Of a stretch of 53,150 nucleotides of DNA, positions 6,043 through 51,260 are shown in pieces (the stretch's first letter is position 1; each line of letters opens with the position of its first letter). This stretch comes from an uncultured Peptococcaceae bacterium. Its GTDB lineage: Bacteria; Bacillota; Peptococcia; DRI-13; UBA5745. The position numbers and the translations under genes were made by a program. The DNA lies in NCBI GenBank assembly GCA_937873525.1, contig CALMWJ010000134.1, forward strand, positions 1 through 53,150, given 5' to 3'. The notes below the pieces were generated by a model. It was given only the letters and a program-made list of their open reading frames with translations. It did not search any database and was not told the DNA's origin.

Positions 6043-6876
6043 ATGGCTGTAAAAAGCTTTAGACCCATTACCCCGTCGCGTCGGCATATGACGGTTGCCA
6101 CGTTCGACGAAATTACAACCGACAAGCCCGAGCGCTCCCTGATTGAGCCTCTGAAAAAACGTGCCGGCCGCAACAACCAAGGTAAGCTCACCGTTCGCCA
6201 TCAGGGCGGCGGCCACAAGAGAATGTACCGGCTCATCGATTTCAAACGCAACAAGGACGGTGTGCCCGCAAAGGTTGCCACCATCGAATACGATCCGAAT
6301 CGCACCGCCTACATCGCGCTGCTCCATTATGTCGATGGCGAAAAACGCTACATCCTGGCACCCATCGGCTTAAAAGTCGGCGACAGCATCGTGTCCGGCG
6401 AACAGGCGGACATCAAAATCGGCAATGCGCTGCCCTTGGCCAACATTCCGGTCGGCACCATTGTCCACAATATCGAACTGAAACCTAAAAAAGGCGGCCA
6501 GATCGTCCGGACCGCCGGCTCCTCAGCCCAGCTGATGGCCAAGGAAAAGGATTACGCATCCCTGCGTCTGCCCTCCGGTGAAGTTCGCATGGTGCACATC
6601 ACCTGCAAAGCCACCATCGGCCAGGTCAGCAATCCTGAAAACGAAATCATCAACATCGGTAAAGCCGGACGTTCCCGCTGGATGAACATCCGCCCCGCCA
6701 ACCGCGGCGTCGTGATGAATCCCTGCGACCATCCTCACGGCGGCGGCGAAGGCCGTTCCCCCGTCGGCCGCAAGAGACCGGTTACGCCCTGGGGCAAATC
6801 CGCCATCGGCGGCAACACCCGCAAGAAAAAGAACCCCAGCAACAAATATATTGTTACTTCACGTAAAAAGAAATAA
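6043..6876 (+). CDS. rplB: 50S ribosomal protein L2
   Basis: [14 protein letters not shown]... with the HPHGGGEG motif. Confidence 0.97.
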
Positions 6877-44750: not shown

Positions 44751-45242
44751 ATGACCAAATATATGATCCGGCCGATGATCGATTCCGACATCCCCCAGAT
44801 GGCGGAAATCGAAAAAATGGTCTTTCCGACGCCATGGACCGAGCATGCCTTTCGCAGCGAGCTGTCCGACAACGCCTTGGCGGTTTATCTCATCCTCGCC
44901 CCCGAGGAGGAGCCGGACCAAGTGATCGGCTATGGCGGGATGTGGCAGATCTTTGATGAAGCCCATATTACCAATGTGGCCATCCATCCGGACCACCAAG
45001 GCAAGAAATTGGGCCGGCTGCTGCTCCACGCCATGATCCAGTGGGCTTGGTCCAACCGGATGAGCCACATGACCCTGGAAGTCCGGCCCACCAACAAGCA
45101 GGCCATCGCCCTCTATGAAAAGGCAGGCTTCCGAAGTGTGGGGCGAAGGCCGGGATATTACGAAGACAACGGCGAAGATGCGATCATCATGTGGCTGCAT
45201 CGAAAGAAAGACGAGGAAGAACAGGATGACCGAAAACTTTAA
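44751..45242 (+). CDS. rimI: Ribosomal-protein-alanine N-acetyltransferase (GNAT)
   Basis: The internal ATG at 44751 starts 2 nt after the tsaB stop. GNAT motif [14 protein letters not shown]. Confidence 0.85.
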
Positions 45243-46251
45243 ATGGGTGATGGGAATCGAAAGCAGCTGTGATGAAACGGCTGTGGCGATCCTCAAGGAC
45301 GGGACTACCCTGGCAGCCAATCTGGTGTCGTCCCAGATCCCGATCCACAAAATATATGGCGGGGTGGTTCCGGAAATCGCCTCCCGCCAGCATATGGAGA
45401 CCATCAATCTTCTGATCGACGAAGCCGCCCGGGAAGCAGGGATCACATTGCAGGATCTCGACGGGATCGTCGTGGCCAAAGGACCGGGATTGGTGGGCGC
45501 CTTGCTGGTCGGGGTCAGTACGGCGAAAGCCTTGGCCTATGGCCTCGGGATTCCGCTGCTGGGGATCAATCATATGGAGGGCCATATCTATGCCAACTGG
45601 CTTGCCCATGGGCCTATTGAGTTCCCTGCCCTGGGGCTGATCGTCTCCGGCGGACACACGGCGCTGATGCTGCTGGAAGACTACGGCTGCTACCGTCTTT
45701 TGGGGCAGACCCGGGATGACGCGGCAGGGGAGGCTTTTGACAAAGTGGCCCGGGCGATGAAATTAGGGTATCCGGGCGGGCCGGTCATTGAACAGCTGGC
45801 TGCCCAGGGTGATCCGAAGGCCTTTGATCTGCCCAGAGCCTGGCTCAAGGATCATCCTTGGGAATTCAGCTTCAGCGGCCTGAAGACGGCGGTTCTGAAT
45901 TTGATCAATCAGGCCGCCATGCGGGGCGAGACCATTGACTCCAAGGATATGGCGGCATCCTTCCAAAGCTGTGTGGTGGAGGTGCTGACGGAAAAGACCA
46001 TGGCCGCGGCCGAAGCCTTCAAGGTCACCCGTATCCTGATGGCCGGCGGGGTATCGGCCAATAAAGGACTTCAGGAGTCTCTGGGCCGCCGCTGCCGGGA
46101 GGCAGGGTACACGCTGTATTATCCGTCTCCAGCCTTATGCACCGACAATGCCGCTATGATCGCAGCGGCAGGATATCATCGTTTGAGACAGGGACACCGT
46201 TCCGGATGGGACTTGAATGCCCATCCTTCCCTTGGACTGGAGGAAATGTAA
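45226..46251 (+). CDS. tsaD: tRNA N6-adenosine threonylcarbamoyltransferase TsaD (Gcp/Kae1 family)
   Basis: [13 protein letters not shown] and HMEGH motifs. ATG 45226 overlaps the rimI end. Confidence 0.92.
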
Positions 46252-46381
46252 ACGACGTGTGTTTTTTTAAAAATACAAAGTGCAAACGAATTGCCTGGAA
46301 AACCATGGAACAAACGGAAGATTCCGGATGCGGGTTTTGCAGTTGGCCTGCATAATAGAACGAATTTGCATACAGGTATTC

Positions 46382-46454
46382 TGTGGATAAGGCAATTAAT
46401 ATCCACAAGAATAGGCATTTTATATGTGGATAACCTTGTGGATAGTGTGGATAG
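46382..46454. promoter_or_regulatory. Cluster of five DnaA boxes
   Basis: TGTGGATAA at 46382-46390 and 46425-46433 (perfect complement of TTATCCACA). ATATCCACA at 46399-46407. Abutting TGTGGATAG at 46437-46445 and 46446-46454 (one mismatch each). Confidence 0.8.
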
Positions 46455-46487
46455 GGGCATGCAAATTCTGTATATTGAGGTTCTGTC

Positions 46488-46516
46488 TTGCATTTTCAAG
46501 GAAAAAAGGCTACAAT
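46488..46516 (+). promoter_or_regulatory. Promoter of the uncharacterised 146-aa / flavoprotein operon
   Basis: TTGCAT, 17 nt, TACAAT, starting 34 nt downstream of the last DnaA box. Confidence 0.55.
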
Positions 46517-46618
46517 AATTTTGCATGCGAAATCCGACAGAGGGGTTTCGCGAAAAAACAAGGGTTCCATATCATCAGACCTACTCATCATTGATGAGGG
46601 GAAAAGGGGGAGAAGGAC

Positions 46619-47059
46619 ATGGCAGTGGTTGATCCTTACAAATCCGGTATGTTCAAAAAAGATCCATATTTCAAAAAGAAGGATTGCGAAGGCGAATTGT
46701 GTGTCGTTCTGGACGGCAAATTCGAAGGCAGAAAGCTTCAGCTGATGGTGCCCCGCTCCAGAGCATTCCTTGTGGGAGATATCCATGAACTGATCGCGAC
46801 CGATGAACAGGAAGCTGCGCCCGGCGCAGAGGTCAACCGCATCGCTTACTGGGGATTCTTCGAAGTCGATAAAGCCACGGTGGTTGCCGTCGATGATGAG
46901 ATCACCATCGGTGACAAAGCGGTGGGCCGTATTGCTGGATTCGATGAAACTCATATGCCGAACCATCTGAATGTTGTCATTAAAGTGGAGGAGAGAGTTC
47001 CCGGCGCAGAATTGGGCCTGGAGCTTGGTGACAAAGTTCGCATCGTCAAAAAGGCTTAA
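46619..47059 (+). CDS. Uncharacterised 146-aa soluble protein
   Basis: GGGGGAGAAGG RBS and coding-like composition. I do not recognise a family. The C-terminal half (IGDKAVGRIAGFDETHMPNHLNVVI...GDKVRIV) only faintly recalls PTS EIIA-Gut-type beta-barrels. Confidence 0.7.
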   Translation: MAVVDPYKSGMFKKDPYFKKKDCEGELCVVLDGKFEGRKLQLMVPRSRAFLVGDIHELIATDEQEAAPGAEVNRIAYWGFFEVDKATVVAVDDEITIGDKAVGRIAGFDETHMPNHLNVVIKVEERVPGAELGLELGDKVRIVKKA

Positions 47060-47111
47060 AGGGTTTCTATTGAATACATATTTTTTTATTTTTGAAAGGA
47101 CGGGGTAGGTT

Positions 47112-48392
47112 ATGGTTAAAGTTGTTGTTGTTGGTGGAGGTTGGGCCGGTACCGGCGCTGCGATTTCTGCAGCGAAAGCCGGCGCTAAGGTTACTTTGCT
47201 GGAGAGAACCGACATGCTTCTGGGCACCGGTCTGGTTGGCGGCATCATGCGGAACAATGGCCGTATGGTTGCAACCGAAGAATCGATTGCCATGGGAGCG
47301 CCTGAATTGTTTGACGCTTGCGATGAAACCGCTCGTCACAAAGACTTCGAATTCCCCGGTCACAAACATGCCACCTTATACGATGTGGCGAAGATTGAAC
47401 CCGCTGTCCGCAGAAAACTGGAAGCTGCCGGTGTGGAATACCTCTGTGAAGCTCGCTTCAGCGATGTGGTCATGGATGGCAAAAAAATCGTTGCCGTGAA
47501 AGTTGAAGACGGCAGAACCTTCGAAGCCGACGTTTTCGTTGACGCAACCGGTACGGCTGGTCCCCAGGGCAACTGCGCCAAGTACGGCAATGGCTGCGCC
47601 ATGTGCGTCCTGCGCTGCCCCTCTTACGGACCCCGCGTCAGCTTGGCCGGCAAAGCCGGTGCTGCTGAATTCATGGGCAAGAAAGGCGACGGTTCCTTCG
47701 GCGCCATGTCCGGCTCCTGCAAACTGCACAAAGATTCCCTGGCTGAAGATATTCAGAAAGAACTGAACGAAAAAGGCGTTGCTGTGATCCCCATCCCTGT
47801 GGAACTGCGCAAATCCGGCGTCCTGGCCAAGAAAGCCTGCCAGCAGTACGCCCTGCCTGAATTCGAAGAAAACATCATTCTTCTGGATACCGGCCATGCC
47901 AAATTGATGACCCCCTACTACAAACTGGATCAGCTCCGTCAGGTTCCCGGCTTCGAAAACGCTCGTTTCGAAGATCCCTATGCCGGCGGCAAAGGCAACT
48001 CCATGCGTTACATGGCAGTGTCCTACAGAGACAACTTCCTCAAAGTTGAGGGCGTTGACAACCTGTTCTGCGGCGGCGAAAAAGCCGGCCTGCTGGTTGG
48101 ACACACCGAAGCCATCGTCACCGGCACCCTGGCTGGCCGCAATGCCGTCGCCTTCGCAGCCGGAAAAGAACTGCTGGAACTGCCCACCGAACTGGCCATC
48201 GGCGATGCCATCGACTATGTCGGCAAGCAGATGAGAACCGAAGAAGGCATCAAATTCAAATACACCTTCTCCGGCTCCGTTTACTTCAAACGGATGCAGG
48301 AACTGGGCATGTACACCGCTGACAAAGCCGCTATCCATGCAAAGGTTGAAAAACTGGGCATGACCGGCGTCTACGCTCAGAAACTCTGCTAA
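47112..48392 (+). CDS. GidA/TrmFO-like FAD-dependent protein with an inserted 4-Cys (putative Fe-S) motif
   Basis: N-terminal VVVVGGGWAGTGAA dinucleotide fold. C-terminal LFCGGEKAGLLVGHTEAIVTGTLAGRNA resembles the MnmG/TrmFO signature. C155-x6-C162-x2-C165-x3-C169-P lies at nt 47574..47621. Confidence 0.75.
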   Translation: MVKVVVVGGGWAGTGAAISAAKAGAKVTLLERTDMLLGTGLVGGIMRNNGRMVATEESIAMGAPELFDACDETARHKDFEFPGHKHATLYDVAKIEPAVRRKLEAAGVEYLCEARFSDVVMDGKKIVAVKVEDGRTFEADVFVDATGTAGPQGNCAKYGNGCAMCVLRCPSYGPRVSLAGKAGAAEFMGKKGDGSFGAMSGSCKLHKDSLAEDIQKELNEKGVAVIPIPVELRKSGVLAKKACQQYALPEFEENIILLDTGHAKLMTPYYKLDQLRQVPGFENARFEDPYAGGKGNSMRYMAVSYRDNFLKVEGVDNLFCGGEKAGLLVGHTEAIVTGTLAGRNAVAFAAGKELLELPTELAIGDAIDYVGKQMRTEEGIKFKYTFSGSVYFKRMQELGMYTADKAAIHAKVEKLGMTGVYAQKLC

Positions 48393-48519
48393 ATCCGAAG
48401 GACGGCAATTACCTTAAGATGTTAATATGAATTCACGCTGCCGGCTGATCCTTGTGGTCAGCCGGCAACATGATGAAAATTAACCATATCATATTTTTAA
48501 AGGCGAAAGGATGATTTAC

Positions 48520-48984
48520 ATGTCTCAGATCGAAAAGAAACTCGAAGAAATGGGCCTCAAACTCCCCGCAGTCGCAAAACCGGTTGCAGCTTATGTTCCC
48601 GGCGTCAAAGACGGCAACACCATCTACACTTCCGGTCAAGTGCCCTTCGTTGACGGCGCATTGAAATATGCCGGCCATGTCGGCGCTGAATGCACTCCCG
48701 AAGATGCTTATGAAGCTGCTAAAATCTGCTGTCTGAACTGTCTGGCCATCGTGAAAGACCTGGCTGGCGACCTGGACAACGTGGAACAGATCGTTAAAGT
48801 CGTTGGTTTCGTCAGCAGCGCTGCCGGCTTCAACGGCCAGCCCAAAGTCATCAATGGCGCTTCCGAACTGCTGGGCCAGCTGTTCGGCGACAAAGGCGTT
48901 CATGCCAGAAGCGCAGTGGGCGTCAACGAACTGCCCTTGAACGTTCCTTGCGAAGTTGAGATGATCGTCAAGATCAAAGCCTAA
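48520..48984 (+). CDS. RidA/YjgF/UK114-family protein
   Basis: GNTIYTSGQVP...ARSAVGVNELPLNVPCEVEMIV. ATG 48520 is preferred over 48511 on RBS spacing. Confidence 0.85.
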   Translation: MSQIEKKLEEMGLKLPAVAKPVAAYVPGVKDGNTIYTSGQVPFVDGALKYAGHVGAECTPEDAYEAAKICCLNCLAIVKDLAGDLDNVEQIVKVVGFVSSAAGFNGQPKVINGASELLGQLFGDKGVHARSAVGVNELPLNVPCEVEMIVKIKA

Positions 48985-49277: not shown

Positions 49278-49562
49278 ATGAACATCAAACCCCTTGGCGA
49301 AAGACTTTTGGTAAAACCGATCGTTGCCGAACAGAAAACAGCTGGCGGCATTGTTCTGCCTGACACTGCCAAAGAAAAACCCCAGCAGGGCGAAGTCCTG
49401 GCGGTGGGCAGCGGCAAGATGCTGGACAACGGAACCCGCATCCCCATGGAAGTCAAAGTCGGCGATAAAGTCCTCTATTCCAAATATGCCGGTACTGAAA
49501 TCAAAATCGACGACCAGGAACTGCTCATCCTGATGGAACGGGACGTCCACGCGATCCTGTAA
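49278..49562 (+). CDS. groES: Co-chaperonin GroES
   Basis: [14 protein letters not shown]...[12 protein letters not shown]. Confidence 0.97.

Positions 49563-49622: not shown

Positions 49623-51260
<1,638 letters not shown>

Follow-up and report, generated by a model that had tools for sequence, protein, structure and literature searches.

Directly behind tsaD (gcp/ydiE), in a stretch of DNA of 53,150 nucleotides from an uncultured Peptococcaceae bacterium (GenBank assembly GCA_937873525.1, contig CALMWJ010000134.1; the whole stretch is referred to here as the window), lies a dense array of DnaA boxes. This array is probably a DnaA-box cluster (DBC) of the non-origin kind, which corresponds in position and architecture to the gcp-ydiF cluster of Bacillus subtilis and has a presumed role in holding DnaA. 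That it belongs to a conserved, tsaD-linked class of DnaA-binding arrays homologous to the Bacillus cluster appears very likely from the sequence comparisons described below. Across the Bacilli and several Clostridia lineages such arrays are attached to the 3′ side of tsaD whatever gene follows, and their orientation, gaps and helical phasing are conserved. Elements of this kind are already known, as conservation of the gcp-ydiF cluster in the Bacillaceae was described in 2007; the modest additions made here are the reach into Clostridia-type lineages, the independence from the downstream gene and from tsaEB-rimI, and the conserved layout.

The array consists of five DnaA boxes at positions 46382 to 46454, two of them perfect and three with one mismatch (Table 1). 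The count is exactly that of an earlier first-pass annotation of this DNA, both by reading of the sequence and by a mismatch scan, and no further box appeared inside the cluster when two mismatches were allowed. Boxes 1 and 3 are the only perfect boxes in the entire window, and 5 of the 16 window sites with at most one mismatch fall within these 73 bp. Given the rate outside the cluster (2.1e-4 sites per bp), the Poisson probability of a 73-bp stretch with at least five sites is about 6e-12 per position and about 3e-7 window-wide, by which a chance origin of the array is excluded. Clusters of the gcp-ydiF type are recognized by at least four to five intergenic sites with no more than one mismatch to TTATCCACA, some of them perfect, and the array has this density. 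Elsewhere in the window, sites with at most one mismatch show no clear enrichment (11 against 8.4), and sites with up to two mismatches are mildly over-represented window-wide (136 against 112 expected, a number reached by 1 of 100 shuffles). One of the outlying one-mismatch boxes, TTGTCCACA at 6461-6469, is situated within rplB (6043-6876). DnaA-binding region 10 of B. subtilis is likewise described as being inside rplB (Smith and Grossman 2015, PMC4447404), an overlap that may be a coincidence or a by-product of codon constraint.

The first box begins 131 bp past the tsaD stop codon, and the last ends 164 bp short of the start of a DUF6917 gene at 46619. The identity of tsaD is confirmed by the NCBIfam equivalog model TIGR03723 (439 bits; cutoff 296), so that the array is indeed immediately downstream of gcp/tsaD. 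The DUF6917 gene is co-directional with tsaD, and the array is therefore not placed between convergent 3′ ends, a B. subtilis trait that may not be a defining one.

Table 1. Positions in the window of the DnaA boxes, the flanking genes and other sequence features of the spacer
Feature	Position	Strand	Remarks
tsaD (gcp/ydiE)	45226..46251	+	last gene of tsaE-tsaB-rimI-tsaD; Pfam TsaD 1e-98; 341-aa gene call in identical contigs
Inverted repeat, left arm	46354..46371	.	core GAATTTGCAT; 18-nt imperfect repeat, brackets the boxes
DnaA box 1	46382..46390	-	perfect, TGTGGATAA on + strand; 'forward', reads in tsaD direction
DnaA box 2	46399..46407	+	1 mismatch, ATATCCACA; sole reverse-oriented box, not conserved
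DnaA box 3	46425..46433	-	perfect, TGTGGATAA on + strand; opens the box-3 bp-box-0 bp-box module
DnaA box 4	46437..46445	-	1 mismatch, TGTGGATAG; 3-bp gap to box 3
DnaA box 5	46446..46454	-	1 mismatch, TGTGGATAG; 0-bp gap to box 4 (abutting)
Candidate promoter P1	46448..46476	+	TGGATA-17-TATATT; -35 inside box 5; 9/12 consensus matches
Inverted repeat, right arm	46459..46476	.	core ATGCAAATTC
Candidate promoter P2 (first-pass annotation)	46488..46516	+	TTGCAT-17-TACAAT; below scan threshold
Downstream operon	46619..48984	+	DUF6917 46619-47059, GIDA-like FAD oxidoreductase 47112-48392, RidA/YjgF 48520-48984 (Pfam)

The attachment of the boxes to tsaD was assessed from both sides. For the forward test, a TsaD-based scan was made with one genome per species, and the best 80 Bacillota loci listed (48-59% TsaD identity) yielded 77 that were usable; the best match among those listed is 59% identical, and no species-level relative is among them. 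Clusters were defined by a density of at least three boxes in 120 bp, and about 523 kb of flanking sequence from the 80 loci served as background. Over the first 500 bp past tsaD the density of boxes amounts to 2.96 per kb, versus 0.37 per kb elsewhere. Of the 77 usable loci, 17 have a cluster within 600 bp after tsaD. The other 523 kb yield only two, each in Paenibacillus and some 3 kb past tsaD, which corresponds to a roughly 90-fold enrichment just after tsaD. The carriers include all Bacilli sampled, namely Bacillus (B. thuringiensis among them), Paucisalibacillus, Amphibacillus, Brevibacillus, Kroppenstedtia and, with a displaced array, Paenibacillus; the Clostridia-type carriers are Alkaliphilus peptidifermentans, Syntrophomonas, Carboxydocellales and six metagenome-assembled genomes (MAGs). 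The genes that follow the array are varied: convergent ABC-F genes of the ydiF type in Bacilli, a convergent SLT transglycosylase, a subtilase, a PdtaS-type kinase, a VanZ-like protein and proteins without a Pfam match. In three loci (L027, L076 and L081) the array is retained although tsaD is not preceded by tsaE, tsaB or rimI. Since the downstream genes differ and the array is kept outside the tsaEB-rimI operon, its constant partner is tsaD.

The reverse test started from the boxes. Metagenome contigs were searched for the box module of the window, generalised to TGTGGANNANNNTGTGGANNNTGTGGATNA, and among the 80 loci returned tsaD is the commonest neighbour: in 10 of them, by tblastn, a tsaD gene ends 86-295 bp upstream and has the same orientation throughout, where well under 0.1 would be expected by chance for one gene among thousands. 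At the closest range, all four forward boxes are unchanged in two lineages that share an identical DUF6917 protein with the window, and in L091 and L093 (DUF6917 protein 81-85% identical) nothing in the spacer can be aligned except the boxes and the ribosome-binding site. Box 1 is invariant in all of these relatives; box 2 is degenerate (TTTGCACCA or TTTGCATCA) in the sister lineage formed by L002, L005, L009 and L010. The enrichment, the 10 reverse-search loci and the footprint in close relatives together bear out the positional conservation across Clostridia and Bacilli that the first-pass annotation had suspected. Its novelty is partial, as conservation of the cluster downstream of gcp in nine Bacillaceae, with B. 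thuringiensis listed as positive, was published in 2007 (Ishikawa, PMC2533591), and it is the extension to Clostridia-type lineages that has been added. A literature search of limited reach found neither DnaA boxes linked to the name tsaD nor the cluster outside the Bacillaceae.

Among the loci returned by the reverse search (L096-L175, mostly from gut metagenomes), the box module is also placed next to genes for DnaD/DnaB-like proteins (5), acyl-ACP thioesterase (5), jag/khpB-trmE (3+2), RF3 (3), MiaB-like proteins (3), mnmG (1) and Mur ligases (5-6). These counts come from a Pfam census that is approximate, as greedy picking of open reading frames (ORFs) took up some shadow ORFs; tsaD itself is counted 4 times there versus 10 times by tblastn. 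Such loci could represent further conserved DnaA clusters outside the origin, notably close to genes of tRNA modification and translation, within lineages that have no tsaD array. Genes can also intervene between tsaD and its array. A CNNM/CorC gene does so in L095 (784-2076), L216 (685-1962) and L219 (1345-2604), and several genes do so in Paenibacillus (L070 and L080 among the displaced-array loci). The displaced arrays keep their orientation and their modules with gaps of 0 and 3 bp, and gene insertions seem to favour this spacer, both ahead of the boxes and behind them.

The layout of the arrays is conserved along with their position. In 34 tsaD-linked arrays, 143 boxes are forward, that is, read TGTGGATAA in the direction of tsaD, versus 21 in reverse; a single reverse box is often the one nearest to tsaD and is sometimes found inside the tsaD terminator hairpin. 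Gaps between forward boxes in the same arrays are mostly of a few sizes (0 bp in 23 cases, 3 bp in 21, 12 bp in 12 and 33-34 bp in 8), and pairwise distances peak at 9/12, 21, 42-43, 63-65 and 84-87 bp. The phasing is helical, with a Rayleigh R of 0.53-0.56 at a period of 10.5-11 bp, for which box pairs were treated as independent even though the loci are related, so that the nominal p is inflated. In the window, box 3 follows box 1 at 43 bp (about four helical turns) and box 5 follows box 3 at 21 bp (two turns), the 12+9 triple thus spanning exactly two turns; the four co-oriented boxes stand at relative positions 0, 43, 55 and 64 bp, and three of them are on the same helical face. The gap pattern of the window (34, 3 and 0 bp) is identical in L086 and closely resembled in L075, L081, L119 and L121, and a pattern of 13, 0, 33 and 3 bp is common to Bacilli. 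Box pairs 2-3 bp apart are needed for stable binding of Escherichia coli DnaA (PMC11317965). The 3-bp pair fits this rule, and the abutting pair appears to be a habit of the Bacillota. The layout is kept in distant Clostridia-type lineages while the neighbouring genes turn over, which argues for selection on a specific DnaA-DNA geometry.

A bacterial oriC combines a box array with DnaA-trios and a DNA unwinding element (DUE), and normally lies beside dnaA and dnaN. The tsaD array resembles such origins in its head-to-tail, helically phased boxes, and its density and two perfect boxes could likewise suggest a cryptic, secondary or relic origin. The chance that it is one is negligible. No dnaA or dnaN was found in the 53-kb window, in which all ORFs of at least 330 aa were either Pfam-scanned or assigned as opposite-strand shadow ORFs or called genes; no run of TAG-type DnaA-trios is seen past the last box; and no extended AT-rich unwinding element adjoins the boxes, the AT-rich stretches being at most 30-45 bp long and wrongly placed. 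The strongest of these near the boxes (46245-46289 and 46395-46424, both with a GC fraction of 0.23) are not positioned like an unwinding element. GC skew climbs monotonically through the array without a switch, and the B. subtilis counterpart is no origin either. The array is therefore outside oriC, as the first-pass annotation had also judged from the window, and origin predictors based on box density should not take arrays after tsaD for origins during annotation.

The boxes also stand close to candidate promoters for the operon that follows. P1 was the sole promoter-like match in a consensus scan of 45900-46900, which is no more than expected by chance from shuffles. P2 had been credited with a good -35 hexamer, a description that is overstated, as TTGCAT agrees with TTGACA at 3 of 6 positions. 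The heptamer TTTGCAT, which is contained in this -35 region at 46488, recurs at 46520-46526. With the boxes ending 33 bp ahead of P2 and overlapping the -35 element of P1, with both promoters invariant in the two close lineages, and with the array directly upstream of a DUF6917-containing operon in the window, L091-L093, L095 and L219, the array could be read mainly as a DnaA operator that ties transcription of the DUF6917/FAD-oxidoreductase/RidA operon to replication status. DnaA-controlled promoters do exist in B. subtilis, at sda, ywlC and dnaA. Such a primary role is nonetheless improbable, and it was rejected because the same array stands beside at least six unrelated downstream genes, often between convergent 3′ ends, and because DUF6917 operons distant from tsaD are free of boxes. 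The latter is the case in L094, L217 (Heliorestis) and L218 (Thermoanaerobacteraceae), and the operons of L217 and L218 adjoin Rex-like and GntR-type genes, candidate regulators of their own. Both candidate promoters are weak consensus matches that cannot be aligned in L091 and L093. The gene orders of the loci with an inserted CNNM gene are also instructive: L095 has tsaD, CNNM, seven boxes, radical-SAM DUF512 and DUF6917; L219 has tsaD, CNNM, a small minus-strand ORF, seven boxes and DUF6917; and L216 has tsaD, CNNM, five boxes, a minus-strand gene of 457 aa and DUF6917, the minus-strand gene parting the array from DUF6917 and placing it between convergent 3′ ends. The array thus keeps to the surroundings of tsaD and is not carried along with the DUF6917 operon, being missing from operons elsewhere. 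DnaA control of this operon, which the first-pass annotation had considered possible, is unsupported as the reason for the array and at most incidental; DnaA may well affect the promoter of the operon in the window, as a local side effect. A different transcriptional role, in which the array would act as a directional roadblock or insulator where the tsaD unit ends and bound DnaA would stop read-through, or convergent and antisense transcription into tsaD, is very unlikely. It would suit the tie of the array to the 3′ end of tsaD even outside the tsaEB-rimI operon, the reverse box in or next to the tsaD terminator hairpin of several taxa (for example L029 and L071), and the window itself, where a plus-strand terminator scan found none after tsaD and only a weak A/U hairpin (z = -0.45) is present. 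Many carriers, however, have a terminator-like hairpin with a T-run between tsaD and the boxes (L031 and L071; in L095, after CNNM), and the layout is kept where one to three genes separate tsaD from the array, as in L095, L216, L219 and Paenibacillus.

The B. subtilis precedent, to which the first-pass annotation had pointed, is real and has been studied both in vivo and in vitro. Stable binding of DnaA was found at eight intergenic regions, among them gcp-ydiF, which has 8 boxes, 4 of them perfect, and whose location between convergent 3′ ends was called 'uncharacteristic for transcriptional regulation' (Ishikawa 2007, PMC2533591). In vitro, gcp-ydiF binds ATP-DnaA with a dissociation constant of 0.15 uM and shows a 16-fold preference for the ATP form at low DnaA (Smith and Grossman 2015, PMC4447404). 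The gcp cluster is among the strongest DnaA-binding sites of the B. subtilis genome, yet its single deletion is without phenotype. That such clusters modulate initiation is correct for the six non-origin clusters jointly, which restrain it, as early initiation is seen only with all six deleted (Okumura 2012, PMC3245932). A 2026 review (PMC13220808) holds nothing newer on the clusters and cites just the 2012 six-fold deletion result.

From these comparisons, a mechanism can be proposed in which the co-oriented boxes would seed the cooperative assembly of ATP-DnaA into an oligomer on duplex DNA that stays closed, and in which the main role of the array would be to keep DnaA in place at one fixed site, probably close to the origin. 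There it might act as a titration site or reservoir, redundant with other clusters in its effect on initiation timing, and possibly as a structural anchor near oriC. In the genome of the window, a bound oligomer would cover the DUF6917 promoter or stand immediately ahead of it, and could dampen this promoter or block read-through from tsaD. The array is probably origin-proximal; the ribosomal-protein/secY/rpoA cluster 30-40 kb upstream of it hints at this, and the B. thuringiensis copy lies at 0.26 Mb of a 5.24-Mb chromosome.

Several points weigh against a DnaA-holding cluster of this kind. Occupancy by DnaA in the organism of the window is a prediction from the letters of the boxes. In B. 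subtilis, the gcp-ydiF single deletion leaves the origin-to-terminus (ori/ter) ratio at 0.99 of wild type, and re-insertion of gcp-ydiF into the six-fold deletion gives no rescue (3.13 vs 3.17), whereas the yydA-yycS cluster does rescue (Okumura 2012, PMC3245932). The array is missing from all sampled loci of Lachnospiraceae and Negativicutes and from those of Peptococcus, Oscillospiraceae and many other Clostridia, and must be dispensable there. Simple titration would not obviously need a fixed orientation, fixed gaps or linkage to tsaD. Furthermore, GC skew is positive on the tsaD strand in 24 of 24 loci tested, so that orientation relative to tsaD is inseparable from orientation relative to fork movement.

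It is possible, though somewhat doubtful, that titration is the function for which the array has been selected; simple titration may fall short of a full explanation, in view of the conserved geometry, the tie to tsaD and the silence of the single deletion. Of the earlier designation as a DnaA sink or regulatory site, the conserved cluster is well founded, while the sink fits less easily with the B. subtilis deletion and re-insertion results. The array might instead be a structural or organising site, where a DnaA oligomer forms a bridge to oriC or other clusters, or serves as the anchor of a chromosome domain close to the origin, and where the geometry reflects the nucleoprotein complex. This is unlikely. 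The fixed orientation, the phasing of about 10.5-11 bp and the gap patterns shared across classes exceed the needs of titration, the absence of an ori/ter phenotype and of rescue in B. subtilis would be accommodated, and 'stabilization of domain structure around oriC' has been proposed (Ishikawa 2007, PMC2533591; Okumura 2012, PMC3245932); on the other side, looping or bridging from the array is without direct evidence for any organism in the literature consulted or in the present data, and the array is absent from many Bacillota. There is a slim, somewhat better chance that the array is an ancient platform for DnaA oligomers, of fixed orientation and helical phasing and predating the split of Bacilli and Clostridia, which as a defined nucleoprotein structure organises the origin-proximal chromosome or couples initiator status to the neighbourhood of N6-threonylcarbamoyladenosine (t6A) and other tRNA-modification genes, rather than serving simple titration. 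Such a platform would explain conservation across classes despite the silent single deletion in B. subtilis. As context, the box module is also found beside trmE-jag, mnmG, MiaB-like, RF3 and DnaD/DnaB-like genes in the approximate metagenome census, and ywlC/tsaC, another t6A gene, is repressed by DnaA in B. subtilis (Ishikawa 2007, PMC2533591). For the preferred reading, a non-origin cluster that holds DnaA, as for its alternatives, orientation, spacing and linkage to tsaD are concrete variables that can be tested in B. subtilis.

The gene order around the array is acpS, nnr, an amidohydrolase gene, tsaE, tsaB, rimI, tsaD, the 367-bp box-bearing spacer, DUF6917, the FAD oxidoreductase, RidA, groES (at 49278) and groEL (at 49626), so that three genes separate the array from groES. 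Farther upstream are the ribosomal-protein/secY/rpoA cluster, nrdDG, ecfAAT-truA, ilvDBC and cdaA-cdaR-glmM. The GC content of the window is about 54%, and its closest named relatives, as seen through DUF6917 homologues, are MAGs labelled Peptococcaceae. DUF6917, the GIDA-like FAD oxidoreductase (about 426 aa) and RidA/YjgF form a conserved uncharacterised triad, and no NCBIfam name was returned for the proteins of this operon. In relatives the triad is found near radical-SAM DUF512, ETF/FixC/FixX and B12-binding proteins and near Rex-like or GntR regulators; it looks like a redox pathway of unknown nature.

Other features of the spacer were noted as well. The arms of the inverted repeat that brackets the boxes are 83% complementary and 87 nt apart. 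In the sister lineage a C>T change in the left arm is matched by G>A in the right arm, by which complementarity is kept; the repeat is missing from L091 and L093 in the spacer alignment. A perfect 15-bp palindrome, CTCATCATTGATGAG, is located at 46584-46598, 20 bp ahead of the DUF6917 start codon, and may serve this operon specifically, as an operator or a leader hairpin. Its arms are kept in the sister lineage (with a T>G change at the centre) and in L091, and not in L093. An Rfam scan of the whole window gave zero matches, and predicted RNA folds are no better than those of shuffled sequences for the tsaD 3′ end (z = -0.45), the box region (-1.2) and the DUF6917 leader (-2.0); an RNA-level reading of the array was discarded on these grounds.

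Among known systems, E. coli datA acts through an integration host factor (IHF)-dependent hydrolysis of DnaA-bound ATP. Like datA and other titration sites, the array is a non-origin cluster of high-affinity boxes, probably origin-proximal, of a sort thought to lower the DnaA available for initiation. In contrast, the Bacillota are without IHF, Hda and datA (PMC13220808), there is no homology to datA in sequence or position, and in B. subtilis deletion of the tsaD cluster on its own left the ori/ter ratio unchanged (PMC3245932). With DnaA-regulated promoters (B. subtilis dnaA, sda, ywlC/tsaC and yydA, and the double DnaA boxes of E. coli) the array of the window shares boxes near or over a candidate promoter, and its 3-bp-gap pair fits the spacing of a double DnaA box needed for stable binding; unlike these promoters, the array of most carriers is found 3′ of tsaD and outside any promoter, and it does not accompany the DUF6917 operon. 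The closest likeness is to the gcp-ydiF cluster. DnaA binding has been measured for the B. subtilis cluster, whereas the array of the window is known from its sequence. B. subtilis has 8-10 boxes between convergent 3′ ends, while the window has 5 boxes, next to or partly within the candidate promoter of the co-directional gene that follows; instead of one of the Bacillaceae, the host is Peptococcaceae-like and of Clostridia type, with a GC content of about 54%, and the order of the gaps differs (13, 0, 33 and 3 bp in the Bacilli type versus 34, 3 and 0 bp). Both are dense clusters of TTATCCACA-type boxes that directly follow gcp/tsaD outside oriC, and the abutting pair and the 3-bp-gap pair of the window are also found in the array of B. 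thuringiensis (L051), a member of the published conserved set.

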